Position numbers and translations under genes: made by a program
NCBI GenBank assembly: GCA_048270185.1
Contig: JBLWTJ010000002.1
Coordinates: 32,001 to 96,000 of the forward strand
DNA length: 64,000 nucleotides
Direction of reading: 5' to 3'
From: Bacteriovoracaceae bacterium
Lineage (GTDB): Bacteria > Bdellovibrionota > Bacteriovoracia > Bacteriovoracales > Bacteriovoracaceae
In this document: piece by piece, positions 34,359 through 52,374 of the stretch
How the letters are laid out: the number at the start of each line of letters is the position of its first letter
Numbering within the stretch: position 1 is the stretch's first letter
The notes under the pieces: generated by a model
What the model was told of the DNA's origin: nothing
The model's input: only the letters and a program-made list of their open reading frames with translations
Database searches by the model: none

Positions 34359-34367
34359 AAAGGCCCT
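34349..34367. terminator. GC-rich hairpin between convergent genes
   Basis: AGGGCCT-TAGAA-AGGCCCT. Confidence 0.6.
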
Positions 34368-34377
34368 ACTAATTCAG

Positions 34378-34725
34378 TTACTTTCCAGTAAAATTTGCGG
34401 CAACAAATTCACCTGAAAGTTTTAAGAAAATATAAAGCTTTTTACCTTTAACACCTTTTTCATTATCAAATGTAACAACCCATTCAGTCTTCTTACCAAA
34501 AGTCTTTTTCACTGACTGATTGTATGTAGAGTTTTTCCAAGAGGCATCAATCTTGCCGGCCTTAATAAGTCTAATGATATGACCTTGGCCGATTTCAACC
34601 GTTTTCTCTTTAGAAACTGCCGGGACTCCATGAGAGTGACTATGACCATGGGAATGGCCATGTCCAGGACCAGCAAAGTTTGAAAAAGAAAAAAGTAAAG
34701 TTCCAATTAAAAATAAGTTTCTCAT
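34378..34725 (-). CDS. Exported His-rich protein (DUF6488-like)
   Basis: Signal peptide, GHGHSHGHSHSH, EWVVTF and LYIFLKLSGEFVAANFTGK. Confidence 0.7.
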   Translation of the reverse strand: MRNLFLIGTLLFSFSNFAGPGHGHSHGHSHSHGVPAVSKEKTVEIGQGHIIRLIKAGKIDASWKNSTYNQSVKKTFGKKTEWVVTFDNEKGVKGKKLYIFLKLSGEFVAANFTGK

Positions 34726-34735
34726 ATGTATTCCC

Positions 34736-35512
34736 CTATAAATTATCGTGTTTGATTTCATCAGTTTGTGATTCATTCATTTTCATATGATGGTGAAGAT
34801 GATTGTCCTCACTAAATCCAAACTCATCACTGCCAGTAGAGTGAAGGTAGCCATGTAATTGCATCAAAAGAAGCATAAACCCAGCTAACATAATCCCATC
34901 ATTAAAAACTCTTGAAAGTCTTGCAAATAAATGAAGCTTTCTCATTTGAGTAATAATTAAAAGCATTATAACTAGTCCTACGATTTGACCTAATTCAACA
35001 CCAATATTAAATGAGATAATTCTCACTAGCATTTCAAAACCTTTATCACCTAATGGCAGCTGTTGAAGACGAGTTGAAAGTCCAAAGCCGTGAATTAGGC
35101 CAAAGATAAAGACCATCCAAAGTAAGTTTGGTGATTTCTTTAATCCAAAATACTCTTGAAATCCTTTATTATTATCGAAACCCTTATAGATAACAGATAT
35201 GGCAATAACAGCATCAATGAGCCAGTAGTTGGCCGCAATTCCCATAAACGTTGCAAAGATAAGTGTAATACTATGGCCTAAAGTAAAGATACTTATAAAC
35301 TTAACGATATCTTTAAAAGTCTTTAAAAAGAATATGACACCAAAAAGAAAAAGTAAGTGATCATATCCTGTAATCATGTGCTCAGCACCAAGGATGATAT
35401 ATTTTAAATAACCACCTTCAATCATTGCACGTCTTGCTTCTTCACTTATTCCATGAGCAAATGAGTTTGCAGCATAGAAAGAAGTAAGAATACTTAATAA
35501 AATTTTAAACAT
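34736..35512 (-). CDS. HupE/UreJ-family Ni/Co transporter
   Basis: HMITGYDHLLF, FTLGHSITL, FGLIHGFG and FNIGVELGQ motifs; His-rich tail. Confidence 0.9.
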   Translation of the reverse strand: MFKILLSILTSFYAANSFAHGISEEARRAMIEGGYLKYIILGAEHMITGYDHLLFLFGVIFFLKTFKDIVKFISIFTLGHSITLIFATFMGIAANYWLIDAVIAISVIYKGFDNNKGFQEYFGLKKSPNLLWMVFIFGLIHGFGLSTRLQQLPLGDKGFEMLVRIISFNIGVELGQIVGLVIMLLIITQMRKLHLFARLSRVFNDGIMLAGFMLLLMQLHGYLHSTGSDEFGFSEDNHLHHHMKMNESQTDEIKHDNL

Positions 35513-35549
35513 AATTTCTCCAATTTTTAGTTTTAATGATTTTAAAAAA

Positions 35550-35930
35550 CTAAGAATGCATTGGAGGACGATAGATTTTACTTGGGTGAGGATTTGATAG
35601 TAATACTTTTTCAAGAAAGCCTAACTTAAGTTCTACAACAGTAACTTTTCCAAAGACTTTTACCGTGCGACTCAAGAGCTTAACTTCTGATTGCGTAACC
35701 TTTGAGTGATCATGATTGTGCTCATGTTCTTCACCATCCTCACTATGCTTATGCTTGTGAGTATGGGGACGCTCATCAATATTATCATGATGACTATTAT
35801 TATAATTTAAAAATTCTACGAGATGAGAGTTGAGCTCATTTTCACTATCAATGAGACTAGGCCCCGTCATAACTACGATGATAGCTAATGAAGAAACAAG
35901 AATAGCTTTAAAGAAAGCGTCTAGGGCCAT
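35550..35930 (-). CDS. His-rich leader protein with C-terminal RPP motif
   Basis: N-terminal TM helix, HTHKHKHSEDGEEHEHNHDH, ends IYRPPMHS; first gene of the hupE operon. Confidence 0.7.
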   Translation of the reverse strand: MALDAFFKAILVSSLAIIVVMTGPSLIDSENELNSHLVEFLNYNNSHHDNIDERPHTHKHKHSEDGEEHEHNHDHSKVTQSEVKLLSRTVKVFGKVTVVELKLGFLEKVLLSNPHPSKIYRPPMHS

Positions 35931-37592: not shown

Positions 37593-37952
37593 CTAGGCCA
37601 ATACATCATAAATAATTAACATCTGCTGCGTTGATAAAACCATCCCTACAAAAGGTAATAGGAATACTATAGGTGAAATTTTCATATTACTTATGAGATA
37701 AGTTATAAATGCAATTGATACTCCATAGAGAAAAGAAAGTAGTGAGACAGCAATAGCAGGCCCCATGGCCTTTGGATCAGAAATATTCTGCAGTAGTAAA
37801 ATATAACCAATAATAGGGCCTAAGAAAGAAGCAAAGAGCGCTGAATTAATAATATAATCTTTGCGGACTTCTTTTTTTACAATAAGAGTCAATGCAATTA
37901 GCCCTAGAACAATTAATAATGAATACCAATCAACAAATATCATAAGATTCAT
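37593..37952 (-). CDS. Miniature MotA/PomA-like membrane protein
   Basis: FVDWYSLLIVLG and LLQNISDPKAMGPAIAVSLLSFLYG match MotA/PomA TM signatures; 119 aa. Confidence 0.65.
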   Translation of the reverse strand: MNLMIFVDWYSLLIVLGLIALTLIVKKEVRKDYIINSALFASFLGPIIGYILLLQNISDPKAMGPAIAVSLLSFLYGVSIAFITYLISNMKISPIVFLLPFVGMVLSTQQMLIIYDVLA

Positions 37953-37961
37953 AAGTCTCCC

Positions 37962-39515
37962 CTAGAACTCAAAACCAATTCCGATTTTGACTTCTTCTTC
38001 ATTAAAATTTCTGAACTCGTTTCTTTTAATATAGAGATTCAAGTAAGCATTCTTATCTCGATTACCATATTGAAACATGGTCATTCCCATATTGAAGTTA
38101 TAAGACTGGGCACTTCTTTGGGTTGCCGAGATTTCACTGTCATATCGATTATCATTGTAATAATGTGTCTTTTGCTCTTTTAAGAAACCATATCCTAAGT
38201 TAGCGTAGCCCTTTGCACTCTTATAAATAACGAGATTCACCCCAGACTCAGTGCGTGTAGTATCCTCAACCGTGTCGTCATCATTCTCGATTGAGTTGTA
38301 CTCAATTTCACTATAGACCCAAAGGTATGAGAAAAGCTTATAGTCGAGGCGTATTGGAAGTTGAGCAAACTCTCCCTTTCCTTCTCTGACAACAGCGGGA
38401 TTATAATTGATAATCCAATTTCCTTCGATATAAGGAGGAGTTTTAGATAGAGAGATTGTCTCCTCTGGCATGAAACGATTTGGCGTAAATTTTAATTGCC
38501 CCTCATAGACAACATAATCTTGCTTTACTAATTTTAGTTTCGACTCCTTGTCATAGCGAATAAGGATTGGTGTTACTCCTTTGTATTCATCATCAAGATA
38601 AACAGAAGCGCCGATTGGATTAGAGCGAATCATTACACGACTCTCTCTAGGTCGCATTTTCAAGTTAAGATCAAGGACCTCACTCTCTCCTATAGAAACG
38701 GGATAGATCATCGAGTAATAATCGGGGTGAGAAAGTGTAATTTGATGCTCAACTGACGCCTTAAGGGTTAGTCGATCATCATTACTTTTCTTACCATTTA
38801 CCTTAACCTGAGCATTTCGAGGATAAGTGCTTAGCTTAATCTTTCCAGTCGCTTCTTTTAAAATAATATTTTGAGAGATCTTGCCTTGAATTAGGATATT
38901 TCGAGTAACTTGCTGATAACCTCTTTTGTTAATTACCAGTAAGTACTTTCCATGTTCAAGAGAGACACTACAATTTGTCGTTGCATAGCGCTTTGAGTTC
39001 TTCTCAAGATTGATGATCTCAACATTTGCATCTGCTGGAGCAGTTGTCAGAGTCAAGACACTCTTTAGGGCGCGGTCACCATAGAGATTAAGAAGCTCAT
39101 CTTTATTTTGGCGACGTCTCTTCTCTTTCTCAATAGAAACCTTTGAGTAGCGAACTTGGCGGTAAACAATATAAGCACCATCCTTTGTTTTAACCGTTTC
39201 TTTAAATGGCGCAAGCCCTTCAATATTAATATTCTTATTTCTAAGCACAGAGCTTTCTTGAATCTGAGTTTCATCAAGGTCAGATAGAATTGAACTTGAG
39301 TACTCGAGATTGACCCCGTAATTATGAATAACAGCTTCATTAAGGGCATTGTAGTAGGCCTCTCTGTAAGCTTCATTGAGCTTCTTCTTCCCTTCAGAAA
39401 TTCCGACATAGTATTGGTAATCCTTATCCTCACTATAGACCTTGGAAGTCCAATCACCACTGGCAAGCAGTGATGACTGGAGGATAAGAAAGGCGTTGAG
39501 CCATTTAAAGAACAT
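37962..39515 (-). CDS. Exported LPP20-like + PEGA-repeat protein with probable C-terminal beta-barrel
   Basis: PEGA motifs (SNPIGASVYLDDEYKGVTP; TYPRNAQVKVNG); C-terminal IGIGFEF beta-signal. Confidence 0.75.
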   Translation of the reverse strand: MFFKWLNAFLILQSSLLASGDWTSKVYSEDKDYQYYVGISEGKKKLNEAYREAYYNALNEAVIHNYGVNLEYSSSILSDLDETQIQESSVLRNKNINIEGLAPFKETVKTKDGAYIVYRQVRYSKVSIEKEKRRRQNKDELLNLYGDRALKSVLTLTTAPADANVEIINLEKNSKRYATTNCSVSLEHGKYLLVINKRGYQQVTRNILIQGKISQNIILKEATGKIKLSTYPRNAQVKVNGKKSNDDRLTLKASVEHQITLSHPDYYSMIYPVSIGESEVLDLNLKMRPRESRVMIRSNPIGASVYLDDEYKGVTPILIRYDKESKLKLVKQDYVVYEGQLKFTPNRFMPEETISLSKTPPYIEGNWIINYNPAVVREGKGEFAQLPIRLDYKLFSYLWVYSEIEYNSIENDDDTVEDTTRTESGVNLVIYKSAKGYANLGYGFLKEQKTHYYNDNRYDSEISATQRSAQSYNFNMGMTMFQYGNRDKNAYLNLYIKRNEFRNFNEEEVKIGIGFEF

Positions 39516-39518
39516 GGC

Positions 39519-40097
39519 CTACTCCTGGCCAAGTTTAGTAATCTGTCCTTGAAGGTGGTTATCAACAGCGGCCTTGAACTCTTTCGATAGTCCTTTTTCG
39601 TGATTTAAGGCGTACTTCATTGCTTTCTTAAGCTTTGATTCTTTTAACGAGATAAGGCTATAGATCTTTAGCACATACTTTGGTGCCCCATCTTCATCAA
39701 AAGTCTTAACTTTTTCCCAGTACCTTTCTTCTTGGTAAATTCCCGAGCTGATATGCTTTGAGAACTCGTTACCATAGAACCTTGCAAGCTCTCCGGAATT
39801 CTCAACACCTTCCTCAGCGTTTTGGAAGATGAAGCTCATCTCATTAACAATGGTACGAGAAATTTCGTGACGAGCATTATTGTCTGCCACTCTTGCCAAG
39901 GCAGTAACCTTCGCATTAATTGAGGCTTCGGCTACACCAACACTATAGACCTTGCCTTCCTTTTTAAACATCGGCTTTGTGATGTCGGCCCATGCTGGTT
40001 TGCTCTCATAATTAGAGCTGTGAGAGATAACTTTCTCAGTAAATGATGAACATGAATAAATGATGAATAAAGAAAGTAAAATAATGTAGTTCCTCAT
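39519..40097 (-). CDS. LPP20-like lipoprotein
   Basis: Lipobox IYSC; KPAW..., YSVGVA...ADNNARHEIS, ERYWEK. Confidence 0.7.
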   Translation of the reverse strand: MRNYIILLSLFIIYSCSSFTEKVISHSSNYESKPAWADITKPMFKKEGKVYSVGVAEASINAKVTALARVADNNARHEISRTIVNEMSFIFQNAEEGVENSGELARFYGNEFSKHISSGIYQEERYWEKVKTFDEDGAPKYVLKIYSLISLKESKLKKAMKYALNHEKGLSKEFKAAVDNHLQGQITKLGQE

Positions 40098-40116: not shown

Positions 40117-40149
40117 ATCATAGAAGAAGCGAATCCAAGAATATGAGAC
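40117..40149 (-). promoter_or_regulatory. Putative WYL-activated promoter, site 1
   Basis: Minus strand GTCTCATATTCTTGGAT-N10-TATGAT upstream of the lipoprotein operon. Confidence 0.65.
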
Positions 40150-40208
40150 TCTGCACTCAAGACATATATTTATAAGACTTTGAAATTACTTATATATTTC
40201 ATATTTAC

Positions 40209-40236
40209 TAAATAACCGACTCCAGTACTCCGATAA
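40209..40236 (+). promoter_or_regulatory. Sigma28-like promoter of the WYL gene (apparently leaderless)
   Basis: TAAA-N16-TCCGATAA ending 7 nt before the ATG; no SD. Confidence 0.55.
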
Positions 40237-40243
40237 AATCCTT

Positions 40244-41251
40244 ATGAGTTCGACAGTGGAAAAATTCTTTAATGTCATTGAGGCCATCCTTTGTCATAGC
40301 AAGGGGCAAATCAGTGAAGAAGAGCTTAAGAGTGTTCTAGGTGATCCACCAAGATCGACTTGGTTTAAGCATAAGAAAGAACTCATTAATGAGAATTATG
40401 GGCTTCTTGATGAAGTTAAGTCACCAGAAGGTCTGTCCTATTTCTCCCTTAAACCATTTAATAACCAATTTAATTATTTAGAGAAGAGAGAGCTCTATAT
40501 CATGGAAGCCTATAAGCACTTAGGCTTCCTTCTTGATGCAAATTTTGATTCCATTAAGTTTCAAAGCTCTCAAGATGTCTCGACAAAAGATTTAAATGAG
40601 TTGTCACGTAAGTTCTTCTATCTTTCAAAGAATCACGCAAAGGATACTTCAAAAGAACAAAAAGAAATTTATGAAAATCTAACGACGTCACTTCTTCAGA
40701 ATAAAGAAGTCTTCATTCACTATCCTTCTGCAAATGATATCGATGGGACAAGACTTCGAAGGGTTCGCCCTCTCACGATTTGCTATCACCTTGATGACCT
40801 CTATCTGCTCGCTAATGAAGAGAAAATCGTCGATGGAAAAGCGAGTTGGGTTGATCGAAATTTTAAGATGAGTCGAATCAAGTCTCTGACTCTTTCTAAT
40901 AATAGTTTTAATTATCCAAGTGCTACTAAGTGGAATCCAAAGAAGGAGTATGAAAATACTAGTGGACTCTATAAGGGTGAAGTCAGGGTGGCCACAGCAA
41001 ATATCTATGGGGTCCTGAGAAAGCTCTTAAAAGAGAAGAATATCATCAACTCATCTCTCATTAGTGAGCATGATGACTTTGATACATATGAATTTAAATA
41101 CACAGATGAAGTCGAGTTTCTTGGAAAGTTTTTAACCTGGGCCGATTCATTTGAAATTCTATCCCCCTTAACTCTAAAGGATCACTTCATCCAAAAGCTA
41201 GAAGCTGCAATAACTTTAAATAGCTCTAAGAAGCTAAAGAAAGCTGCTTAA
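40244..41251 (+). CDS. WYL-domain transcriptional regulator (HTH-WYL-WCX)
   Basis: N-terminal HTH, RRVRPLTI...DLYLLA...RNFKMSRIKSL, C-terminal WADSFEILSPLTLK. Confidence 0.9.
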   Translation: MSSTVEKFFNVIEAILCHSKGQISEEELKSVLGDPPRSTWFKHKKELINENYGLLDEVKSPEGLSYFSLKPFNNQFNYLEKRELYIMEAYKHLGFLLDANFDSIKFQSSQDVSTKDLNELSRKFFYLSKNHAKDTSKEQKEIYENLTTSLLQNKEVFIHYPSANDIDGTRLRRVRPLTICYHLDDLYLLANEEKIVDGKASWVDRNFKMSRIKSLTLSNNSFNYPSATKWNPKKEYENTSGLYKGEVRVATANIYGVLRKLLKEKNIINSSLISEHDDFDTYEFKYTDEVEFLGKFLTWADSFEILSPLTLKDHFIQKLEAAITLNSSKKLKKAA

Positions 41252-42713
41252 CGAGCTTCTTTGCGACCTTTTGAGAAAGCTTACTTGGCCTACAATTACT
41301 CTTGCCCTTATGCTGAACGACTTGAAAATCTCGATGAAAGTATTCTCTTCTAATCTCTATTGTCGAGCGCTCTCCTAATACCTCAAGGGATAAGATACGC
41401 GAACTTCCTGACTCAACTAAGCGATCATAACCATGCGTTCCCACACAGTGATCCATCTCCTTAGTCTCTTGTTCGAGATCAAACCTTGTTAGAAGCTCTC
41501 TTAACTCAACCTTCTCTAGGCTACTCACTGCAGACAAGTCCAGAGGCGTATTAAGCTTTGCATATCGACCTTTAAACTCTTCTGCTTCAATCAGAGACGC
41601 TAAGACATTGTACATCAAGTAAGGATTTATTCTCTGGGCCGGATACTGTTGGCATACATTCTTTAATGTCACAAAGAAGATATCTCCATATGTCTTTATC
41701 TGTTTCTTGAAAATAAAAAGGTCATTAACCAGTTCGTGAAAACATATTTCCGGGCGAGACAAGTAATTAGAAAATTCAAACCGTCCCATATAAGAGCTTA
41801 CAAAGTTTAACTTCTCTTTTGAAATGGCCTGTGGAAGAGTTTCTTGAAAACTATCAATACTATAATTTGATTTTTCAACGAGAAATGAAAAGACATCTGG
41901 ATAGGTCAAGAGATCGGCCATTCTTCTTACGAGTCCCTTAGGCTTTGAGTGATATAACTGCATACAAAAGTGCATAAGCCTTTTATCATCTTGGATGAGA
42001 GGATGAATCTGTCCTAATGGCATCTCTTCATTAACTTCACTAATGAGCTCGTTATACCCCGAAATACGCTCTTCACTTCGAACAATCATTCCCATAAAGC
42101 ACGAACCATAGGCTCCTTCAAAAGAGGCCATATAAGCTAAGGAGTTAATCTCATGCATGACATTCACATAGCACTCTTCTTCGCTCTTGGCCGACTTTAA
42201 GACATTAACTAAGGACTTATCAATATCCTCTTTTCTTTGAGGTGTCGCATAGACCTGCTTCTTCTTTTCAAAATCTGCAAATTCTGAGGTAGCTAGAAAT
42301 TGCCTCGAAAAAATATCGTAGGCAATTTGATGAGAGTTGATTGTTGCGCTCTTTATAATCTCATCGATTGGATTTCCCTTTGTCGAAAATGGCTTTATAA
42401 TCAAACCCTTTTGGCTATAAGACCTTAGAAAAACTGTTTCTTTACCGGCTCGATGAAGCTCACTTCGATACGTATGCTTATAAATCGTTAGGGTATCAGG
42501 AAGTGTTAACTCTCTTTTTAGAAATCCCTGATAGATCGTAAAAAGGTCTTCTCCTGTAATAAAAAAGCTAGAAGTTGGATTCTTCATTCGTAAGCGTTGA
42601 ATATCAAACTGGCCAGAGAAGATTCTAAGTAGCAGCTTCTCAAACGTCAGAGACTTTGATTGCAGCGTATTCTTTATGTAATTTAATTGTAGATGATCTA
42701 AAATCAGTCCCAT
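41226..42713 (-). CDS. PcfJ-domain protein
   Basis: C-terminal LEQETKEMDHCVG..Y...SRILSL...RSTIEI...VVQHKGKSN. Confidence 0.8.
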   Translation of the reverse strand: MGLILDHLQLNYIKNTLQSKSLTFEKLLLRIFSGQFDIQRLRMKNPTSSFFITGEDLFTIYQGFLKRELTLPDTLTIYKHTYRSELHRAGKETVFLRSYSQKGLIIKPFSTKGNPIDEIIKSATINSHQIAYDIFSRQFLATSEFADFEKKKQVYATPQRKEDIDKSLVNVLKSAKSEEECYVNVMHEINSLAYMASFEGAYGSCFMGMIVRSEERISGYNELISEVNEEMPLGQIHPLIQDDKRLMHFCMQLYHSKPKGLVRRMADLLTYPDVFSFLVEKSNYSIDSFQETLPQAISKEKLNFVSSYMGRFEFSNYLSRPEICFHELVNDLFIFKKQIKTYGDIFFVTLKNVCQQYPAQRINPYLMYNVLASLIEAEEFKGRYAKLNTPLDLSAVSSLEKVELRELLTRFDLEQETKEMDHCVGTHGYDRLVESGSSRILSLEVLGERSTIEIRREYFHRDFQVVQHKGKSNCRPSKLSQKVAKKLVKQLSLAS

Positions 42714-42734
42714 GACTTACTCCCCCTCTAGCGA

Positions 42735-42767
42735 ATAATAGAGGAAGCACGTCTAGGATATTGAGAC
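42735..42767 (-). promoter_or_regulatory. Putative WYL-activated promoter, site 2
   Basis: Minus strand GTCTCAATATCCTAGAC-N10-TATTAT upstream of the pcfJ-like gene. Confidence 0.7.
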
Positions 42768-42769
42768 TT

Positions 42770-43255
42770 TTAAGCTTTACAGAGAATTGGCCAACCAAAC
42801 TCTGAGCGAACGACATTTTCTACGAATACTCTCAAGGCCTTACTATCATCACTAACGTCAATATAGCCTTCAAGCTTATCCTTGAGGCACTTTTCATAAA
42901 TGACAGCATATTCATAATTAACTTTATATCGACCTAACGCCAAGCAGGCCGTCCCCTTGTAGCCATTTTCAGAGAAGTGGGCATTAAGCCTATTCTTAAC
43001 ATTCTTTGCCATGCCAAAATAATGAAACTTCTTACTCTCAATATTCTTTAAGCCAGAATTAGCTTTAATGGTATTAGGGATATGCACATGCTTACTTGCC
43101 TTAAGAGGATTCTGTTTTATCTTATTAAGTCCTATAACTTTTATTAGATACCATCCAGGCTTACCTTTGATACTTTCGAAACCATCACTCTTCATTTTCT
43201 TGATAGCATCTTCAACTTCTTCACGAATTATTGATCTTACTGTATCGAGGCTCAT
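42770..43255 (-). CDS. GIY-YIG-superfamily nuclease
   Basis: PGWYLI...YFGMAKNVKNRLNAHF, with a downstream E in VFVEN. Confidence 0.7.
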   Translation of the reverse strand: MSLDTVRSIIREEVEDAIKKMKSDGFESIKGKPGWYLIKVIGLNKIKQNPLKASKHVHIPNTIKANSGLKNIESKKFHYFGMAKNVKNRLNAHFSENGYKGTACLALGRYKVNYEYAVIYEKCLKDKLEGYIDVSDDSKALRVFVENVVRSEFGWPILCKA

Positions 43256-43429
43256 GTTATACTCCCTAGCTGTATTCTTAATAGCTTAACTCTTTAACCA
43301 CACAATTTATTGTCATAATTTTAGAGAACGCCACTATTAGTATATACCCAACAAGCTGTTTTTCCGTACAAAATATATTTCATTTAAAATCTTCCATCTT
43401 GACTGACATAAAAAGAGAGAGATTTAGAA

Positions 43430-44710
43430 ATGAAAGAATACACGCCAAAACACTTCTACACGATTTTTGATCCATTTTTAAAAGCCGAGTTATTCACAAA
43501 AGAAAATGAAAAGAACACTCAAGGCCATGAGTTTCAAAGGCAGCTCAAGGAGAAATACCAGAATATGAAAGATGGTGATAACTGCCTTCAGTATATGTAC
43601 TGGGGAAAGATCTCTGTCTCTCAAAAGGCTTCTAAATTGGGAACTGAGCTAAATGAGCTTGTTGAAAAAAACAGAAAGCATAATTTTACGACTCACCTAT
43701 TTATTAGTGACTTCAATCACCTCTGGGTCGCAAAGGTTGAAGAAGTATGCTTTGGTGACGATGAAGAGTTCTATGCAAATGCTTTGGACTTCTACCGAGA
43801 GTTTCAAGGTAAGGGGCAAATCGAAGCTTGGTTTAAGATCTCAGATATTGATCTCATTGGAAATAATGCTGAAGAAACTCATCAGTATATTTCTAGTCTT
43901 GAAACAATTATCAACTCGAATAAAGTTTATATCACTCCATACGTCAGTAACTTAAGATACCCTGTCATTGTCAAAGACTTCGCCTGTGTGGAACCAGTCC
44001 ACTTTGATACATCAAGGCCACTTGTACTGGAGAACTTAATCGAGAATGAATCCTTCTATGAGAAGATAAAAATGATCATTACAAAGTATAGTATTCCTAA
44101 AGAAGAGTTCGAAAAGCTTAAGCCAACAGTCCAAAAAGAAATCATTCGAACGGAAATGGACTTCTTTGATCAGAAGGCCAAGAATTGGAATAGTCTCTAC
44201 TTCTCATATTTTAAGGCCCTTGAGTGGCAGCTCAATCATGTGGTTCTAAACTTCCTTAAGTCAGAGTATAAAGATGGAGAAATTCAAGTTCTTAGAAAGA
44301 ATAATAATTGTGCGACTTTCTACTTTCCTGACAATCCAAATAATCAACCAGGAGATGAATGTATTCCACTAAATGAATACCATGGTAACTTCTCAATCAA
44401 GGTTATTATGAATTGTCTGTTTTCAGGAAGTAATAAGGTCGTCTCAAAGAAAGGTAACCGCCAAGTCTTCTCGGCCCTCCCTGGCCTCTATCAATATGTC
44501 TCAGAAGACTTAAAGAGTTTTCTCAATCTAAATAAAATCGTAGATACCAGAAATATCATTGTTCACAATGATTCATTAGAAGTTACTGAAGCCGACTTTA
44601 AAAAGATACGAAATGAGCTTCTAGGGATCGCAAAGACTGGGATTCTCGTGGAGCTTGCAAATTACACAACTAAGGAACAAAACAAAGCAAGACTCAAGGT
44701 TGCGGCTTAA
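43430..44710 (+). CDS. HP0729-like protein with C-terminal HEPN-type RxxxxH motif
   Basis: YWGKI, HLFISDFNHLWVAKV and EAWFKISD resemble the HP0729 family from memory; helical C-terminus with RNIIVH. Confidence 0.55.
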   Translation: MKEYTPKHFYTIFDPFLKAELFTKENEKNTQGHEFQRQLKEKYQNMKDGDNCLQYMYWGKISVSQKASKLGTELNELVEKNRKHNFTTHLFISDFNHLWVAKVEEVCFGDDEEFYANALDFYREFQGKGQIEAWFKISDIDLIGNNAEETHQYISSLETIINSNKVYITPYVSNLRYPVIVKDFACVEPVHFDTSRPLVLENLIENESFYEKIKMIITKYSIPKEEFEKLKPTVQKEIIRTEMDFFDQKAKNWNSLYFSYFKALEWQLNHVVLNFLKSEYKDGEIQVLRKNNNCATFYFPDNPNNQPGDECIPLNEYHGNFSIKVIMNCLFSGSNKVVSKKGNRQVFSALPGLYQYVSEDLKSFLNLNKIVDTRNIIVHNDSLEVTEADFKKIRNELLGIAKTGILVELANYTTKEQNKARLKVAA

Positions 44711-44816
44711 ATATCTGTAATCACAAAAGAGACAGAGGTTTGTGCTCAAGTAATTTCGCTTATGGCCCGAAAAGTAAAGATAGCTTGAAAAGTAATAAGA
44801 AAATAGGAAAGGATAT

Positions 44817-46544
44817 ATGCCATTACATATCTTAAAAACTTCTCCAAAGCTTGGAGAGAAGAAAGTACTTAAGCATATTGAAGAATTATATAAAGATGTT
44901 GAGCGCGATGTTTATGTCATCAGTGATAATCTTCTAAGTATTGATGAAGGTGTTTCTTTTAAGCCAGACTTTATCATTCTTGATCCAACTTACGGAATTT
45001 CAATTATTGAAGTAAAGAGCTACAAAGAAGATAGTATCGACAAGCTCGATAATTTTACCATCACATTCACTAATGGTGATACCGACTTATCCCCTTTCAA
45101 AAAGTGTCAGGACTATCGCTTTAAATTATCAGACTATTTAAATGCCAATGAACTAGATATTTCCATGAAGAAGATTAAAACACTTCTCGTCTTCACAAAT
45201 ATCAAAGAAGACCTATTTAGAGAATATGACTATGTGGAGTCTCACTATAAGAACTTTCAAGAAACTTTAAATCTTGAAACTCTATTTCCACAAACACCTA
45301 TTCAAAAGAAGAAGATAAACGATATCTACATGGCCATGAATCCAGTTATGTACTTTAATATTGAAACACAGGACACCGCCAGTTCATCATTTGATAAATT
45401 AGATGAAGACCAGCTCGACTTTGTAAAAAAGCCAATTGGTGGCCACTACCTAATCTCAGGAATTCCAGGAAGTGGTAAATCCGTCGCTGTTGTCTCTCGT
45501 GCAATCTATATCGCCAATGAGAAGCCTGATTGGAAAATCCTCGTCCTTTCTGAAAATAAGTTTTTAAAAGAGAAGAATGAGAAGGCCATTAGAGAGCGCA
45601 CAAAGAATTTTAATAAGCTTGGAAACGATACTGAGAATAATATCGTCTGCATGACCTTAATGAAGCTTCTCACAGACACTTCACCAGAAGAAGCTGACAA
45701 GTTTATGAAGTATCCTGACAAGGTCGACTTTCTAACCAATGCCATTCTTGATTCTGAAATTGTCGCGAAGTATGACGCCGTCTTAATCGATGAGTACCAA
45801 GACTTCTCAGATGATCATATACGCATTGCAAAGCTTGTCACTAAGAAGAAATCAACAATTATTAATAATGAAGAAAGGCTCATTGAAAATATCTTTCTAT
45901 CTGGAGACCGATTACAAAAGGTTAAAGAAAAAGGCAGTTCAGGAAATTGGATTGATATTGGTATTGAAATTTCAGGGCGCAGTAAGAAGCTAAAAGGAAG
46001 CTATCGCTGTGGACGAGAGATTATCGACATCGCCTTAAGCTTTTTAAAGTCTGCCGGAAAAGTCGTAAAAGACGAAGTTGAATCCTACTACGAAGGAACT
46101 GATACTATTGAGTATCTTGGAGACTTAACAGGAAGCTTCTCGACCTTCACAGGTTGGGATGATCTTGGAGTTGCAAAGATTCACAATTGGGTCAATGCAC
46201 TAACCTCAAAAGGTGTTCCTCCATCTGATATCTTAATTATCACACCTAATAATACAACCTTGGTTAATAAACTTAAGAAAGCATTTCACAATGAAGTCTC
46301 AGAAGGCCTACTCATTGGAATGCCAAGTAATATCAAAGGCCTTGAAGCAGGTCACTGCGCTATCTATAACTTTGATAGCATTGGTTACCATTCATCTTCA
46401 CAGTCAAATAAGTATAAGCAAATCTACATGTGCTTAACGAGGGCCAGATCAAGTATCTTCATCAACTGCTGGAAGGCCGGCAATGAAGACTTTGAGAAGC
46501 TTGAAGAAATTATCGCATCAAAGACAGATTTTGAAGCGGCTTAG
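44817..46544 (+). CDS. NERD nuclease fused to a UvrD-like SF1 helicase
   Basis: PDFIIL..GISIIEVK; GIPGSGKS, IDEYQD, GDRLQ, SYRC, KGLE and YMCLTRAR. Confidence 0.9.
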   Translation: MPLHILKTSPKLGEKKVLKHIEELYKDVERDVYVISDNLLSIDEGVSFKPDFIILDPTYGISIIEVKSYKEDSIDKLDNFTITFTNGDTDLSPFKKCQDYRFKLSDYLNANELDISMKKIKTLLVFTNIKEDLFREYDYVESHYKNFQETLNLETLFPQTPIQKKKINDIYMAMNPVMYFNIETQDTASSSFDKLDEDQLDFVKKPIGGHYLISGIPGSGKSVAVVSRAIYIANEKPDWKILVLSENKFLKEKNEKAIRERTKNFNKLGNDTENNIVCMTLMKLLTDTSPEEADKFMKYPDKVDFLTNAILDSEIVAKYDAVLIDEYQDFSDDHIRIAKLVTKKKSTIINNEERLIENIFLSGDRLQKVKEKGSSGNWIDIGIEISGRSKKLKGSYRCGREIIDIALSFLKSAGKVVKDEVESYYEGTDTIEYLGDLTGSFSTFTGWDDLGVAKIHNWVNALTSKGVPPSDILIITPNNTTLVNKLKKAFHNEVSEGLLIGMPSNIKGLEAGHCAIYNFDSIGYHSSSQSNKYKQIYMCLTRARSSIFINCWKAGNEDFEKLEEIIASKTDFEAA

Positions 46545-46560
46545 TAACTAGTTTAGAAGT

Positions 46561-47166
46561 TTAGACAAAGTACTTCTTATAGTGCTCTAGACGGTAGTCA
46601 TAAGTTGGCTTCTTCCCTGTATATGAAAGTTTCCAATTCTTATACTCTGCATTTCGCCCAATGCCTCGCGAAGCCTGCCCAGACGGTGAAATCAAAACAA
46701 CTTCAACAACCTGTCCGACTACATTCGGCTTAATATTTTCACAAAACCAATCTCTTACCTGCTGTGAAGTAAAATAGATTTTTTCGATTTTATTCTCATT
46801 AATAATATTCGCAAGTCCGTGATTCCAAGTTTGCTCATGAAGATCTGCATCTGATGCACTCCCCTTGTGACGCTGGCATGAGTGAATAACATCAGAGATA
46901 CCGATATTTCGTGCACTCAACTCTTCCTTAATCGCTTCCTTACTTGTAAGCTTTCGTCCGAAGCAATCCCCTAATAATCGCCAAAGAAGATTCTGATTTC
47001 CACCATAGTAGAAGTTAACCTCACCTTCATTGATCTCATCACTTCTTTCAGGATTCGTGAACTTTCCAATGGGAAATGATCCGACAATAAGCTTACGACA
47101 TCCTTCTGGAATATAGTCGCCAAATGGATGAACCTCTACTGGCCCTAAATCTAGTTTCTTACTCAT
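46561..47166 (-). CDS. Uracil-DNA glycosylase superfamily protein (MUG/HDG-like)
   Basis: HPF, LIVGSFP, FYYG..N.LWR, SASDADL and LISPS motifs. Confidence 0.85.
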   Translation of the reverse strand: MSKKLDLGPVEVHPFGDYIPEGCRKLIVGSFPIGKFTNPERSDEINEGEVNFYYGGNQNLLWRLLGDCFGRKLTSKEAIKEELSARNIGISDVIHSCQRHKGSASDADLHEQTWNHGLANIINENKIEKIYFTSQQVRDWFCENIKPNVVGQVVEVVLISPSGQASRGIGRNAEYKNWKLSYTGKKPTYDYRLEHYKKYFV

Positions 47167-47190
47167 TCATTCCTCCGAAAACTATCACTA

Positions 47191-47376
47191 TTATAACTTA
47201 AATATATCAAATGATACTAATCGATAGATTTTATTATAGATAAACCTCTTAGGTGACCTAAGCCATCCCCATCCCCTTGGCATCTTAATTCCAAGGCCAT
47301 GAACTGCCCTTCTCCTAATGGATGTCCTAGCTGATATCCTCTTTTTCAATGAAAACTTTCTTGCGCCAAACTTCAT
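47191..47376 (-). CDS. Small highly basic protein (phage/MGE-associated type)
   Basis: MKFGARKFSLKKRISARTS...GWGWLRSPKRFIYNKIY; start at ATG 47376 after AAGGGAG. Confidence 0.7.
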   Translation of the reverse strand: MKFGARKFSLKKRISARTSIRRRAVHGLGIKMPRGWGWLRSPKRFIYNKIYRLVSFDIFKL

Positions 47377-47396
47377 GAGTGATCTCCCTTTTTTAG

Positions 47397-47429
47397 AGTA
47401 TAGACAATGGAGGTCTCGGATTGTGAGAC
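47397..47429 (-). promoter_or_regulatory. Putative WYL-activated promoter, site 3
   Basis: Minus strand GTCTCACAATCCGAGAC (perfect GTCTC-N7-GAGAC)-N10-TATACT. Confidence 0.7.
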
Positions 47430-47460
47430 AAAAGTCATGCATAATACAATAACTAAACAC

Positions 47461-47495: not shown

Positions 47496-49493
47496 ATGAA
47501 GTATTTAACAAAGTCTAAGTTCAAGCTAGGTCTCGAATGTCCTACAAAGCTCTACTATAACGAAGATAAAGAGTACGCTAACGCCAATCTAGATGACCCA
47601 TTTCTTGCGGCTTTAGCAAAGGGAGGCTTTCAAGTTGGAGAACTTGCAAAGTGTTACTATCCTGAAGGTTTTGATATCGTTGAGTTAGACTATGAAACTT
47701 CAACATCTAAAACGAGCAAACTCATGGAAGCTCAAGATGTCACAATCTTTGAAGCAGCAATCCAATACAAGAACCTCTTTGTAAGAGTTGATATTTTAGA
47801 AAAGGTTGGAAATACCATCAACCTGATCGAAGTAAAATCAAAATCAGTTGACCCTGGTCAATTTGAAGACCAGCTCTGGAGTAAAACTGCGGCGAAAAAG
47901 GGAGAGCAAAAGCTTCTCTCAACATGGAAGTCCTATATTTATGACGTGGCCTTCCAAGCCTATGTCTTAAAAAAGGCCTTCCCAAATATGACGATCAATA
48001 GCCATCTCATGTGCGCAGACAAATCAACGATTGCCACAGTCGATGGCCTCAATCAGAAGTTTGTTCTTAAAGAAGAAAATGGACGAAGCTACGCTGAGGT
48101 CAATGGCGACATCAGTCCAGACGCCCTTGGCGAAGAGATCCTTTGTAAAATCCCTCTTAACGAGGTCGTTGAAATTATTCATAGTGAAAATGAGATGAGT
48201 GAACGCTTCAACGGACTTGGGTTTGAAGCAGCAATTTGGCAATTTGCTGACTCCCTTACTCAAGGAGAGAAGATTGAATCAGTGGTTTCTTCAAAGTGCA
48301 AGAATTGTGAATTTAGAGCAAGTGAAGAAGGCAAGAAATCAGGGTTTAATGAATGTTGGTCCCTCGCTCATGGCCTCTCACAAGAAGAACTCGAACAGCC
48401 TCTTGTCTTTGATGTTTGGAATTTTCGAGGTGGAGACAAAGCGCTTGAAAGTGGCAAAGTCCTACTTGAAGACCTCGATGCTACCGATATAAAAACAAAC
48501 CCAAGAAAAGACGGTATCGGACTCTCAAATGGAGAGCGCCAGCTTCTGCAAGTCGAGAAAGTTAAAGACCATGATGACACATCCTTTATTGATATCGAAG
48601 GACTTGCATTAGAAATGAACACATGGAACTACCCTCTTCATATGATCGATTTTGAAACATGTATGGTGGCAATTCCCTTTAATAAAGGACAGGCACCGTA
48701 TGAGCAAATTGCCTTTCAATTCAGTCATCATATCATTCATGAAGATGGTAAGATCGAACATGCAAATGAGTATATCAATGCAACTCAAGGCTTCCACCCA
48801 AACTTTGAGTTTGTCAGACGTCTAAGAGATGCCCTTGGCGACAAAGGTTCGATCTTTCGCTACTCAAACCATGAGAACACAGTACTCTGCCAAATTAGAC
48901 AGCAACTTCTTGATTCTGAGGAAAGCGATGCTGATGAGTTAATCAAATTCATCGAAACAATAACAAATAAGAAATCTGGAAAAGAATATGCCTGGAAGGG
49001 AGATCGCGACATGATTGACCTTTGTGAGATGGTTAAGAAGTACTACTACTCACCACTTACCAATGGCTCTAATTCAATCAAGTACGTACTACCTGCAATC
49101 CTAAATGAATCCAACTTCATTCAAGAAAAGTATTCTAAGCCAATCTACGGTAAAGGCCATGAGATCGAATCTAAGAATTTTGACTCGCATACTTGGATCT
49201 CACTAGACGAGAGCGGCGATGTCATTAACCCATATAAGACACTTCCACCAGTATTTGATAATTATGACTACGATGAACTTGAATTAGTTGGTGAGAATGA
49301 TATTGCAAATGGTGGAGCGGCCCTTACAGCATATGCCATGATGCAATTCACTCATATGTCAGATATCGAGCGAGAGAAAGTAAAGTCAGCGCTTCTTCGC
49401 TATTGTGAATTAGATACCCTCGCGATGGTTATGATTTGGGAGCATTGGAATCATTTAATTACGGAGTCTCAAACAGAGAGAGAGGCATCATAA
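47496..49493 (+). CDS. DUF2779-domain protein (RecB/Cas4-like nuclease plus RNase H-like domain)
   Basis: LTKSKF...CPTKLY, RVDIL..LIEVKS, DVAFQ, CKNCEF..CW, IDFET, PYEQIAFQFS, GSNSIKYVLP, YCELDT. Confidence 0.85.
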   Translation: MKYLTKSKFKLGLECPTKLYYNEDKEYANANLDDPFLAALAKGGFQVGELAKCYYPEGFDIVELDYETSTSKTSKLMEAQDVTIFEAAIQYKNLFVRVDILEKVGNTINLIEVKSKSVDPGQFEDQLWSKTAAKKGEQKLLSTWKSYIYDVAFQAYVLKKAFPNMTINSHLMCADKSTIATVDGLNQKFVLKEENGRSYAEVNGDISPDALGEEILCKIPLNEVVEIIHSENEMSERFNGLGFEAAIWQFADSLTQGEKIESVVSSKCKNCEFRASEEGKKSGFNECWSLAHGLSQEELEQPLVFDVWNFRGGDKALESGKVLLEDLDATDIKTNPRKDGIGLSNGERQLLQVEKVKDHDDTSFIDIEGLALEMNTWNYPLHMIDFETCMVAIPFNKGQAPYEQIAFQFSHHIIHEDGKIEHANEYINATQGFHPNFEFVRRLRDALGDKGSIFRYSNHENTVLCQIRQQLLDSEESDADELIKFIETITNKKSGKEYAWKGDRDMIDLCEMVKKYYYSPLTNGSNSIKYVLPAILNESNFIQEKYSKPIYGKGHEIESKNFDSHTWISLDESGDVINPYKTLPPVFDNYDYDELELVGENDIANGGAALTAYAMMQFTHMSDIEREKVKSALLRYCELDTLAMVMIWEHWNHLITESQTEREAS

Positions 49494-49531: not shown

Positions 49532-50806
49532 TTAAGCTGCAATTGAATTACTTTTGATGACCTTCTCTACACTAACAGAATCTATTTTATCGATTAACCT
49601 CAGAAAATCGGTATACTTGTGTATTAACTCTAGAGTCTCATAAAGATTTTCCATCGTTTTTGGAGATGCAAGTCGTCGTTTATTTCCTAGATAGCTCTTT
49701 GGATCACTAAGTATTCCACGGTATACATTCAAGGCCATCACTTCAAGAAAATTTATAATTTGGTCTCTTGGAATTTTTGAAGGAACGAGAATTCGCTTAA
49801 AGCTTCTCTTTCCATGATATTCATCTTCGATAATGAATGATAAATCACTATCAAGCTTGAGCTTCAGTTTCTTAGCATGGTGCCTAGGAGGAGTAATTAT
49901 TAAAGTTTTACTTCTTAAGGATTCTCTCGATTTTGGGTGTAAAGTCCATTGTCCTGGTACATCATCACTTTTTAAACGATTGAGGGACTCTGTGAAGCAC
50001 TCACCGAAACTCCAAAGAATATCTAACTTTGCCTCATGAATAATATCATTATTACTACCATTCTTATCAAGGCGTATATTATTGAGAGCATTTAAAAACT
50101 CTAAGACATTTATTAAATTCTTTACTCGTTTATTCTTAGTAGGATTTTTAAGATTTAATGAGTGTAGTATTTCAAGAATATCCTTAGTCCAAGACAATTG
50201 AACCCAATACTTTGCTTCAATTCCATCCTTGCCTGAATCGTGTGCTTTAGGAGGAACACCAAGCAAAGTTAAATAAACATACTCCTGGTACTTCTCACGA
50301 TAAAATACTTCATTAAAATATTTACGATAATAATATAATTGATCTTTGTGATTATGAGTAAATAGTTTATTTTCTACGACGAGTGTAAAACTATCCTTCT
50401 TATCTAAGTCTAGAAGGACTATATCGCACTGTCCATACTTATCCTTTGAATTGACGGCCCCCAATGGAAACTCTCTTATGACACCTGCATTAGTAATCCC
50501 GCGCGCTAGATCACTAACTGACTTTCGAGATGAATTTGTACGATGCTTTCTTAAAACTAACTTATTCTTCTTAGACTTTAGTCCGTTAGCTTCCTCAGCT
50601 CTATTCGCTGCAATTTTAGTAATAAACTTTTTTGGGAAGGAACTACCAAAATAGCTCTTTTCTCTCGAATCCAGTAAGGCCGCAAACATATTCGAAAACC
50701 ACTCTTCACTCATTGAAAAGTGAATCAAGTCCTGCCAATCTTTGTGATCTTTAGAAATTTTATCAAAAATAGCTTTTAACTTACTGAGATTACGTTGAGT
50801 CGTCAT
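49532..50806 (-). CDS. PD-(D/E)XK nuclease family protein (PDDEXK_4-like)
   Basis: EEWFSNMFAALLD, IREF, CDIVL..LVVENKL..DQLYYY, YLTL. Confidence 0.8.
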   Translation of the reverse strand: MTTQRNLSKLKAIFDKISKDHKDWQDLIHFSMSEEWFSNMFAALLDSREKSYFGSSFPKKFITKIAANRAEEANGLKSKKNKLVLRKHRTNSSRKSVSDLARGITNAGVIREFPLGAVNSKDKYGQCDIVLLDLDKKDSFTLVVENKLFTHNHKDQLYYYRKYFNEVFYREKYQEYVYLTLLGVPPKAHDSGKDGIEAKYWVQLSWTKDILEILHSLNLKNPTKNKRVKNLINVLEFLNALNNIRLDKNGSNNDIIHEAKLDILWSFGECFTESLNRLKSDDVPGQWTLHPKSRESLRSKTLIITPPRHHAKKLKLKLDSDLSFIIEDEYHGKRSFKRILVPSKIPRDQIINFLEVMALNVYRGILSDPKSYLGNKRRLASPKTMENLYETLELIHKYTDFLRLIDKIDSVSVEKVIKSNSIAA

Positions 50807-50842
50807 ACCTCCTTATCGGTATGACTAAATAAAAGTTAAGTG

Positions 50843-51403
50843 CTACCCCAGAATTAAGTTTAACCATCTCTCATCACGATCAGGCCTCTTATCCTCGGTA
50901 ATCCAATCTTTCTCTATCCTCAGATTCGAAGGCAAAAACTCTTTAATCGTCTCAAGAGTTTGATCATTGAAGAAGCGACCATTCCTCTCCCCTTCATGCT
51001 CTCCATATTTGAAAGAACAGTAAAAGACCGCATCGTCATTCATAAGGTTTGATATTTTTAATAAGACATCTTTAAGTTCGTTTGAGGGCACATGTAACAG
51101 AGAAGCACATGCCCAGATTCCATCAAATTTAGAATCAAGACTTACTTCCTGAAGTGTTCCGAGATGAACAACACAACCACTGTGAGAACGAGCAAATTGC
51201 GCGAGTTTCTCACTTGGTTCAAGACCTATAGCTTCATATCCATGATCTTTAAAATACTTGAGATCTCGTCCCGGGCCACAGCCGATGTCTAAGATCAATC
51301 CGCCATCCTTTACGTTTTCGAGAAATGGTTTGTAAAGATGTGACAGGTCTAAATCTAGAGTTGAATCAATGAATTCTTGGTTATTCTTATCGTAGTAATT
51401 CAT
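50843..51403 (-). CDS. Class I SAM-dependent methyltransferase
   Basis: ILDIGCGPGRD, FDGIWACASLLHVP, SFKYG. Confidence 0.9.
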   Translation of the reverse strand: MNYYDKNNQEFIDSTLDLDLSHLYKPFLENVKDGGLILDIGCGPGRDLKYFKDHGYEAIGLEPSEKLAQFARSHSGCVVHLGTLQEVSLDSKFDGIWACASLLHVPSNELKDVLLKISNLMNDDAVFYCSFKYGEHEGERNGRFFNDQTLETIKEFLPSNLRIEKDWITEDKRPDRDERWLNLILG

Positions 51404-51464
51404 AATACTAGATTACTCGAAATTTATAATCGCATCAAATCTATTTAGACGATATAATATCTCC

Positions 51465-52373
51465 ATGATCGAAGATTTTATCCAATGGTACGACAATATT
51501 AATAAGGCACGTGCAAAAGACTATTATGCGCCTCACAAGCCAATAACAATCCTATATGCACTTGTCAAAGCAGCGAAAAATGTACGCTGGATTGAATTCA
51601 ATAGAGATCGTGAAGAGCTTGAGTCTATTATTAGTGAGTTTACTAAGTATTCAACAAGGCCAAATTGTCTTCAGCCTCTTTGGCGACTTACAAATGACTC
51701 TAAAGCAATGCCTTATTGGACAACACAGCCTGCTAATATTGTTTTAAACAATAAAGGTGATATCCCTACTGGAACAGCAAAAGAGATTAATTTTAAAGCT
51801 GGCTTTAGTGACGAGATCTATAACAAGCTTAAAAATAATAAAGCTCACATACATGCTCTCATTCGCTATATAACTGAAGACAACTTCCCGGACAGTCTCC
51901 ATGAAACACTTTGGGAGCTACTTGGTGTCTTTGACCTAGAAGCTCAAGCTCCTTCAGAAGAAACTATCACGACAACAGTGACAAAAGTGAAGAGAGATCC
52001 AAAGTTTCCAAAACTTATTCTGTCCCTCTATGGTAACCAATGTGCTTGCTGTGGATTAAAGATTAACTTCAAAAATAACACCGCTCTATCAATGGAAGCT
52101 GCTCATATCAAGTGGAAAGCTCGCGGTGGAGACTGTAATGAGTACAATGGCCTAGCCCTATGTCCAACTCACCACTACACTTTTGATCGTGGTATCTGGA
52201 CACTTAACTCTGATTATAGAATTGAACTTAGTGACTCAATTTTAATTGACCGCAAAAATGACACTTTCTTTACACCCTATATTGGTAAATCTATTGGAAG
52301 GTTTATTCTAAATGAGGAGTTACTACCGAGTGCAGGGAATATTGAGTGGCATAGGAAGAATATTTTGAAATAA
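51465..52373 (+). CDS. Phosphorothioate-DNA-binding (SBD)-HNH restriction endonuclease
   Basis: APHKP and QPLWRLTND (SBD); CACCG..EAAHIKW..NGLALCPTHH.TFDRG (HNH). Confidence 0.85.
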   Translation: MIEDFIQWYDNINKARAKDYYAPHKPITILYALVKAAKNVRWIEFNRDREELESIISEFTKYSTRPNCLQPLWRLTNDSKAMPYWTTQPANIVLNNKGDIPTGTAKEINFKAGFSDEIYNKLKNNKAHIHALIRYITEDNFPDSLHETLWELLGVFDLEAQAPSEETITTTVTKVKRDPKFPKLILSLYGNQCACCGLKINFKNNTALSMEAAHIKWKARGGDCNEYNGLALCPTHHYTFDRGIWTLNSDYRIELSDSILIDRKNDTFFTPYIGKSIGRFILNEELLPSAGNIEWHRKNILK

Positions 52374-52374
52374 T

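Follow-up and report, generated by a model that had tools for sequence, protein, structure and literature searches.

A DriD-type WYL regulator and its candidate promoter box on an accessory island of a Bacteriovoracaceae bacterium

The 64,000-nucleotide (nt) stretch of DNA analyzed here (the window; GenBank assembly GCA_048270185.1, contig JBLWTJ010000002.1, positions 32,001 to 96,000 of the forward strand) comes from a predatory marine bacterium of the Bacteriovoracaceae and contains an accessory island that carries a gene for a WYL-domain regulator. A first-pass annotation of the bare sequence had proposed that this regulator activates several island promoters through a 17-base pair (bp) palindromic box placed at a fixed distance upstream of the -10 hexamer. 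The finding is real, and this interpretation is supported by our follow-up: what emerges is a DriD-type WYL regulator with its own box on an accessory island, together with a local multi-promoter regulon and changeable cargo. The boxes recur with the same fixed geometry in other genomes, where they co-occur with the clade of the regulator, and the regulator is homologous to DriD, which in Caulobacter crescentus activates an SOS-independent response to DNA damage. So far, this regulator-box system is found only in Bacteriovoracaceae and relatives.

Boxes at a fixed distance from the -10 hexamer

Reading the window sequence directly, we found all three minus-strand sites where they had been claimed: GTCTCATATTCTTGGAT-N10-TATGAT (40149-40117), GTCTCAATATCCTAGAC-N10-TATTAT (42767-42735), and GTCTCACAATCCGAGAC-N10-TATACT (47429-47397). 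At each of them, a purine-rich Shine-Dalgarno sequence and an ATG 20-21 nt past the -10 hexamer open a gene, as the first-pass annotation had said. Its consensus, GTCTC-N7-GAGAC, holds less evenly: the N10 spacing is identical throughout, but only site 3 is a perfect palindrome, with the right arm GAGAC kept at 4/5 positions in site 2 and at 2/5 in site 1, which is located inside the 146-bp gap separating the WYL gene from the divergent lipoprotein gene. A fourth promoter had been missed. Box 3, read on the plus strand, is likewise followed after N10 by a hexamer, CATAAT, and then by a DUF2779 gene at 47496. The start sites of all four promoters are predicted from the A 7 nt past the -10 hexamer.

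A position weight matrix was built independently of the window: it draws on 33 sites taken from other genomes, ignores the spacer, and has a weakest training site of 17.1 bits. With it, ~6.7 million positions of the 3.35-Mb genome were scored. The minus-strand reading of site 3 ranks first (27.1 bits), its plus-strand reading second (22.3 bits), and site 2 third (21.9 bits). The six top matches outside the island score 16.2-18.9 bits and all fall within open frames of at least 225 residues; the island sites are intergenic. The perfect palindrome GTCTC-N7-GAGAC occurs at only two places in the genome. The full pattern of the first-pass annotation has three genomic matches, all of them these sites, a count that is circular. 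A loose palindrome with up to two mismatches is not enriched in the window (28 vs 19.2 expected, with 28 reached in 4/100 shuffles).

The 10-nt distance is conserved across genomes. Among 84 oriented sites from thirteen non-window loci, TAnnnT stands at offset 10 in 27, compared with 0-5 at each of 25 other offsets. When 38 promoters are aligned, of which the window contributes five (including one at 49466 that is treated as chance), the box positions are near-invariant and the 10-nt spacer is unconserved; no -35-like hexamer is seen at the proper distance, nor is there a consistent TG before the -10. An A is located 7 nt past the -10, the expected start point, in 25/38 promoters. Taking this A as the start places the box center at about -31, and the box covers the place of a -35 element, as had been claimed. 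Scans with a sigma-70 consensus around boxes 1 and 3 gave counts at chance level, as did a rival -10, TACAAT (47445-47450), paired with TTGTGA as a -35.

In relatives, several boxes carry a -10 at N10 on both strands with a gene on each side (locus L011 at 4101, L012 at 263, L013 at 9222, L014 at 7159, and L017 at 1900 and 12383). At others, the downstream ATG stands only 0-6 nt past the -10 hexamer, without a ribosome-binding site (L007 at 4363, L010 at 14493, L013 at 14547, L014 at 6277, 9963, and 11932, and L019 at 14837); transcripts from these boxes would be leaderless or nearly so, and the regulator's own gene in L014 is among these cases.

Three further readings of the window sequence were set aside. 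A further palindrome of poor quality (40147-40163; minus-strand reading GTCTTGAGTGCAGAGTC) shares 3 nt with box 1 and is oriented toward the regulator gene; in the plus-strand reading, AAGACT follows after N10. This palindrome might serve autoregulation or be due to chance, and it was discounted for 4/12 mismatches to the consensus, counted by eye. A weak match at 49466-49482 was treated as chance, lying inside the DUF2779 gene with no frame downstream. Box 2 as a hairpin terminator was rejected, since its stem is only 5 bp and no T run follows.

The WYL regulator and its kinship to DriD

In an AlphaFold model of the regulator (predicted local distance difference test score, pLDDT, 82.7), the winged helix-turn-helix (wHTH) domain spans residues 4-69, the WYL domain 137-221, and the WCX domain 248-327. 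Pfam recognizes the WYL domain above its cutoff (E 5.6e-6) and the WCX domain below it (E 0.0019; 18.9 bits against 23.9), and the PADLOC WYL model matches with E 6.4e-17. By Pfam and model together, the regulator has the domain order of DriD: wHTH, helical linker, WYL, WCX. It is the sole WYL match of Pfam in the genome. The claim that it is the only regulator of the island stands in so far as there is no other clear one; a weak HTH_3 match does lie in a recombinase fragment at 54287-54745.

A profile made from 32 homologues was searched against solved structures, with the entry codes checked in papers. The profile matched DriD with E 3.8e-7 to 2e-6, PafBC with 5e-3, and BrxR with 0.5, and left CapW unmatched. 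Foldseek placed DriD at ranks 1-10 (E 2e-13 to 8e-11), with full-length DriD chains at ranks 1-6 and a TM-score of 0.80 for the C-terminal half, followed by PafBC (6.5e-10), CapW (8.6e-7), and BrxR (3.5e-6). DriD is therefore the closest solved relative by both sequence profile and fold, and PafBC the second-best structural match. The activator-type kinship proposed by the first-pass annotation is borne out, and neither search returned CapW or BrxR as the closest relative. The DriD residues Tyr192, Arg204, Trp206, Arg207, and Arg210, which contact ssDNA (single-stranded DNA), align with Y187, R205, F207, K208, and R211, which may thus contact a ligand here; Y187, K208, and R211 are invariant among the 32 homologues.

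The likeness to DriD extends to the promoters. DriD promoters have no -35; the site ATACGAC-N7-GTCGTAT overlaps the position where that element would stand and keeps a single fixed distance to the -10 (PMC13004042). The box described here shares this placement and, like the DriD site, is a pseudo-palindrome with short arms 7 bp apart, the arms being CGAC in DriD and TCTC here. In the DriD oligonucleotides given in the Methods of that paper, we counted by hand 11 nt between the 15-bp core CGAC-N7-GTCG and CAATCT, CAAGGT, or CAAGCC; an "optimized -35" variant carries TTGACA 17 nt before CAATCT (PMC13004042). The core TCTC-N7-GAGA of our boxes is likewise followed, again by hand count, by 11 nt and then the -10. 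One DriD site lies in a promoter region common to the divergent driD gene, and it is the other operon that is activated there (PMC13004042). Unlike in the DriD system, several boxes here appear to serve both directions, and whereas DriD targets chromosomal genes (didA, bapE, recJ, and dnaG), the boxes here precede accessory island genes adjoining the regulator.

Other WYL regulators share some of these features. DdaA of Moraxellaceae is a homodimeric activator with the motif CGWCA-N5-TGWCG (PMC12392091, PMC13010146) which, compared by its published description, has the inner CA-N5-TG in common with our box; it also controls both DNA damage and anti-phage or defense genes. DdaA, however, is a core regulator that is said to replace SOS, with a genome-wide regulon and a motif reported ~50 bp upstream of starts. 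SiwR of Mycobacterium smegmatis is a WYL activator of adjoining genes that acts from a palindrome between -35 and -10 and needs its arginines that bind ssDNA, but it serves one operon from one site, belongs to a PafBC-like branch, and depends on the -26 region, in contrast to the four promoters and DriD-like geometry seen here. PafBC of Actinobacteria is an ssDNA-sensing WYL activator with a fixed element upstream of TAnnnT in promoters without a -35, and it does not bind its site without polymerase (PMC13004042). It is a heterodimer of two paralogues, whereas here a single full-length gene goes with a palindromic box; no second tandem WYL paralogue was found, the other match in the genome being a C-terminal fragment of 162 residues. 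CapW and BrxR have the same wHTH-WYL-WCX architecture, reside in defense islands, use palindromic sites, and sense ssDNA, but both repress. The BrxR site, located downstream of the -10, has 11-bp repeat arms that stand 5 bp apart (PMC9122601), compared with 5-6-bp arms upstream of the -10 in strict register here.

The regulator family is small: a search of 1.84 billion proteins gave 72 representatives at E ≤0.001. One homologue with 81% identity is labeled by its source as Halobacteriovorax. Unlike driD, the gene is patchy in its distribution. It was found in none of the 12 genomes of the same genus that were searched, and a full-length homologue is present in 19 of 200 further family genomes sampled (~10%). 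Hence, we regard it as an accessory gene. A search of viral contigs and plasmids for a mobile-element origin found no relative. The C-terminal fragment mentioned above is a frame ~51 kb from the regulator and outside the window (contig C2, 20726-21157; L008, 8726-9154), 44% identical to regulator residues 189-332, that is, to the WYL-WCX part only. The 20 kb around it hold no box and no lipoprotein or PEGA homologue. Similar short forms occur among the family representatives (P0023, P0037, and P0043-P0047).

Co-occurrence in relatives and the likely mechanism

The first 13 loci assembled around homologues comprise two plus 11 found by an alignment scan, the 11 being from metagenome-assembled genomes titled Bacteriovoracaceae, Halobacteriovoraceae, Halobacteriovorax, Bacteriovorax, Bdellovibrio, Bdellovibrionota, or Deltaproteobacteria. 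The box rTCTCA-N5-TGAGAy, with core TCTC-N7-GAGA, is present in 1-7 copies in 11/13 of them, and boxes with a -10 at N10 occur in these 11. One of the other two, L018, is a locus of only 2.5 kb without a box; in the other, L015, two promoters carry the variant TCCTA-N5-TAGGA (7546-7562 and 12886-12902) with the usual N10 and TAnnnT. The arms of this variant agree in 4/4 cases, and its regulator has the recognition helix KSQFYLYL vs R..[FY]K in most others. At loci with the recognition helix KSTWHRL, TCCCA is found in 4/14 arms. These small numbers hint that protein helix and box arms co-vary. In L011 and L012 (via a gene of 311-314 residues), L013 (via a TPR gene), and L014 (directly), the regulator itself stands behind a box.

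Eight further test loci, fetched later, were kept out of the matrix, and 6/8 contain matches of at least 19 bits, above the best non-island match of this genome (18.9). We also counted a strict pattern, TCTCA-N5-TGAGAC-N11-A-N3-T, across 201 family genomes; the genomes being related, these counts are descriptive rather than a formal test. The 19 genomes with a full-length homologue contain 30 matches, 21 of which sit on the regulator's own contig, and 14/19 have at least one. In the 175 genomes without a homologue there are 32 matches, similar to the 32 given by a reversed control in all 201, and the motif is therefore at chance level where the gene is missing. Both expectations of the first-pass annotation, that the motif should co-occur with this WYL clade and should not be common in genomes without it, agree with these counts.

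Two kinds of partial regulator accompany the boxes in relatives. In L007 (genome G013), a 52-residue regulator remnant with a stop codon (4347-4546) is followed by an intact box and, at N10, TAGAAT; this orphan box, without a full-length regulator, precedes a frame of 51 residues and a DUF2779 gene 71% identical to that of the window. In five other loci, the PEGA gene is followed by a small frame of 86-111 residues that resembles the regulator's wHTH domain and lacks the WYL and WCX parts (L009, 14435-14770; L010, 14195-14506; L011, 8675-8935; L012, 4798-5082; L019, 14530-14850). Pfam gave no match in the three of these frames that were scanned. Through positions 2-89, the family profile also matches such pieces in G067, G126, G173, and G190, each near a full-length gene, and in G078 a wHTH-only piece lies beside a C-terminal fragment. 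These wHTH-only proteins might compete for the box as a feedback brake.

We consider it probable that the regulator is a DriD-like activator of a local island regulon. A dimer of the WYL protein would read rTCTCA-N5-TGAGAy; the palindromic box and homology suggest a homodimer formed through WCX. By analogy with DriD, the WYL/WCX part would bind a nucleic acid, most likely ssDNA that arises through DNA damage or phage attack, and this ligand would free the wHTH domains, upon which the dimer would bind the box and hold the housekeeping RNA polymerase at promoters that have a -10 hexamer only. Four units would then be switched on together: the operon of lipoprotein, PEGA protein, and small MotA-like protein; the PcfJ-like gene; the genes for the small basic and UDG-like proteins; and the DUF2779 gene.

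Several points weigh against this scheme. Identity to DriD is only 16-20%, the spacing in the DriD promoters is our own hand count from the printed oligonucleotides, and the linker of the regulator model (pLDDT 50-71) is too uncertain for a three-helix bundle to be confirmed. Site 1 scores 15.3 bits, rank 13 in the genome and below the weakest training site; box 1 is credible mainly because most orthologous lipoprotein-PEGA operons in relatives bear strong boxes. Contigs carrying P0002 and P0003 (regulators 81% and 79% identical), sought in order to footprint box 1, were not found in genome or metagenome contig scans. In G013, box and intact DUF2779 gene are kept beside the regulator remnant, a pattern that a lost repressor would explain no less well than a recently lost activator, and the setting resembles a defense island, where the known WYL regulators (CapW and BrxR) repress. 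DNA binding, activation, ligand, and start sites are what we infer within the scheme. The RNA evidence consists of one polyA metatranscriptome containing 6% of sampled words, with five contigs of 155-256 nt that are uninformative on starts and strand.

The same metatranscriptome is labeled compost. Its contigs cover window positions 39400-39510, 40938-41143, and 45701-46222; they match parts of the PEGA and WYL genes almost exactly, whereas for parts of the NERD-UvrD gene the identity is 93-98%. A relative of a marine genus would hardly be expected in compost, and DNA carry-over may be involved.

A repressor in the manner of CapW and BrxR would sit over the -35 region at rest and leave the DNA on binding ssDNA, so that the island is derepressed. 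Besides the setting and the persistence of box and DUF2779 gene in G013, the shared architecture would suit such a protein, and a box centered at -31 would block polymerase too. Nevertheless, we judge this account unlikely. Across the 38 aligned promoters there is neither a -35 nor a consistent TG before the -10, and such promoters should therefore be weak on their own. An operator needs no fixed 10-nt distance, yet this distance is kept in 27/84 sites across 13 loci, two-way boxes included. The BrxR repeats differ in arms, spacer, and position, and DriD is by far a stronger match than either BrxR or CapW.

Co-occurrence by itself does not tell which protein reads the box. The reader could also be an unrecognized sigma factor or the wHTH-only paralogue that five related loci encode after the PEGA gene, with the WYL gene only co-traveling. 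This we hold to be improbable: the present genome has no wHTH-only paralogue (the family profile finds only the full gene and the C-terminal fragment), a palindrome suits a dimeric regulator rather than a sigma factor, and the box has the same geometry as the sites of DriD and DdaA. Arms (4/4 TCCTA) and recognition helix also differ together in L015, a single locus. That the sites resemble each other by chance, or arose by duplication of a single promoter, without a common regulator, is very hard to credit, being already contradicted by the spacing, matrix, and co-occurrence data. Site 3 (both strands) and site 2 take ranks 1-3 genome-wide under a matrix made from other genomes, and the same architecture is seen in ~17 other loci; the unenriched loose palindrome in the window and the weak box 1 would fit chance. 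Spacers and flanks differ among the three sites, which are therefore not recent copies.

Genes behind the boxes and the island

The lipoprotein and PEGA genes behind box 1 (Table 1) have homologues adjoining the regulator in nine loci, most of them behind a box and often via a small membrane-protein frame; this operon, whose intergenic gaps are 3 and 9 nt in the window, is the conserved core partner of the regulator. The label "LPP20" given earlier to the lipoprotein did not hold up beyond a lead, coming from one Atlas cluster in which LPP20 is on 14% of members. The DUF2779 protein is probably a Cas4-like nuclease. Its homologues stand behind a box at N10 in L006, L007, and L014, the last of which additionally matches Cas4 and RNase_H_2. 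For the PcfJ-like, UDG-like, and small basic proteins, a search of 14 related loci gave no homologue, and these proteins hence represent variable cargo; Pfam has no match for the latter two. Other box-driven genes in relatives encode a double-AAA ATPase of 745-772 residues (five loci), a PD-(D/E)XK nuclease, and TPR proteins, besides many products that Pfam does not recognize.

Table 1. Boxes, promoter hexamers, and genes of the regulator locus, in window coordinates
Feature	Position	Strand	Remarks
Box 1, GTCTCATATTCTTGGAT	40133..40149	-	Weak; left arm perfect, right arm degenerate
-10 hexamer TATGAT, promoter 1	40117..40122	-	Exactly 10 nt past box 1; predicted start ~40110
Box 2, GTCTCAATATCCTAGAC	42751..42767	-	21.9 bits, genome rank 3
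-10 hexamer TATTAT, promoter 2	42735..42740	-	Exactly 10 nt past box 2; predicted start ~42728
Box 3, GTCTCACAATCCGAGAC	47413..47429	both strands	Perfect palindrome, usable in either direction; 27.1 bits minus, 22.3 bits plus
-10 hexamer TATACT, promoter 3	47397..47402	-	Exactly 10 nt past box 3; predicted start ~47390
-10 hexamer CATAAT, promoter 4	47440..47445	+	Exactly 10 nt past box 3, plus strand; predicted start ~47452
WYL regulator gene, 335 residues	40244..41251	+	wHTH-helical linker-WYL-WCX; Pfam, PADLOC, AlphaFold, Foldseek
Operon 1: lipoprotein, PEGA protein, small MotA/ExbB-like membrane protein	37593..40097	-	Behind box 1
Lipoprotein gene, 192 residues	39519-40097	-	Operon 1
PEGA protein gene, 517 residues	37962-39515	-	Pfam PEGA, E 4e-20
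Small MotA/ExbB-like membrane protein gene, 119 residues	37593-37952	-	Pfam MotA_ExbB, E 2.8e-6
PcfJ-like protein gene, 495 residues	41226..42713	-	Convergent with WYL gene; Pfam PcfJ, E 2.7e-6, 27.7 bits (cutoff 25)
Operon 3: small basic protein and UDG-superfamily protein	46561..47376	-	Behind box 3, minus strand
Small basic protein, 61 residues	47191-47376	-	ATG at 47376 with Shine-Dalgarno sequence; shorter than the GTG frame of the open reading frame tool
UDG-superfamily protein, 201 residues	46561-47166	-	NCBIfam TIGR04274 deoxyinosine glycosylase, E 6.3e-11, 42.6 bits (cutoff 80)
DUF2779 protein gene, 665 residues	47496..49493	+	Pfam DUF2779, E 2.1e-25

A more far-reaching idea, which we put forward only tentatively and think rather less than likely, is that the 33-bp unit of box, N10, and hexamer is a portable activator-dependent promoter that plugs new cargo into one ssDNA-sensing WYL activator. 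The cargo would be the PcfJ, UDG, and DUF2779 proteins, the double-AAA ATPase, PD-(D/E)XK nucleases, and TPR proteins, and the conserved core output would be an envelope module of small membrane protein, lipoprotein, and PEGA protein. If this were true, the circuit would link intracellular DNA sensing to a change of the cell envelope and could give predatory bacteria a new kind of inducible defense or a means of responding to prey DNA; it would also be an activator-type counterpart of repressor-controlled defense islands.

Among the titles listed by literature searches, none is on WYL regulators in Bdellovibrionota, and none of the papers listed treats the WYL domain together with Halobacteriovorax, Bacteriovorax, the PEGA domain, or DUF2779. 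According to the discussion of the SiwR paper, WYL regulators beside defense genes have so far been repressors and those of DNA damage activators, a split to which DdaA is a core-genome exception. Here, a regulator that by homology and promoter layout looks like an activator is on an accessory island, with 3-7 target promoters within a few kb. Its regulon can be predicted from sequence alone, and the outputs, the conserved envelope module included, are almost all proteins of unassigned function. The system is compact and testable, offering a case of DriD-type activation outside Caulobacter in which one palindromic box might be tested for firing two divergent promoters, and it opens the question of how predatory bacteria respond to ssDNA.

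The rest of the island (42770-46544 and 49532-54745) encodes GIY-YIG-like, HP0729-family, NERD-UvrD helicase, and PD-(D/E)XK (PDC-S26-like) proteins, as well as a methyltransferase, an HNH protein, a CoiA-like protein, and the short recombinase fragment; none of the genes in these two intervals has a box. By PADLOC, the NERD-UvrD protein (C3a187, E 2.1e-29), the HNH protein, and the PDC-S26-like nuclease are phage-defense genes beside the regulator, and in relatives the nearby defense genes include GmrSD, HNH-EVE, and a methylase with an AAA_5 protein. The regulator again has HP0729-like and NERD-UvrD genes as neighbors in L009, L010, L013, and L019.

The flanks of the island (27116-35614 and 55313-60118) are ordinary. 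Each flank has RND efflux pumps, and the other genes there are for a LysR regulator, with a flavodoxin-like gene divergent from it, and for DUF6488, HupE/UreJ, and DUF1971. The left flank is found in 9/12 genomes of the genus and the right flank, weakly, in 3/12, never adjoining the left one.

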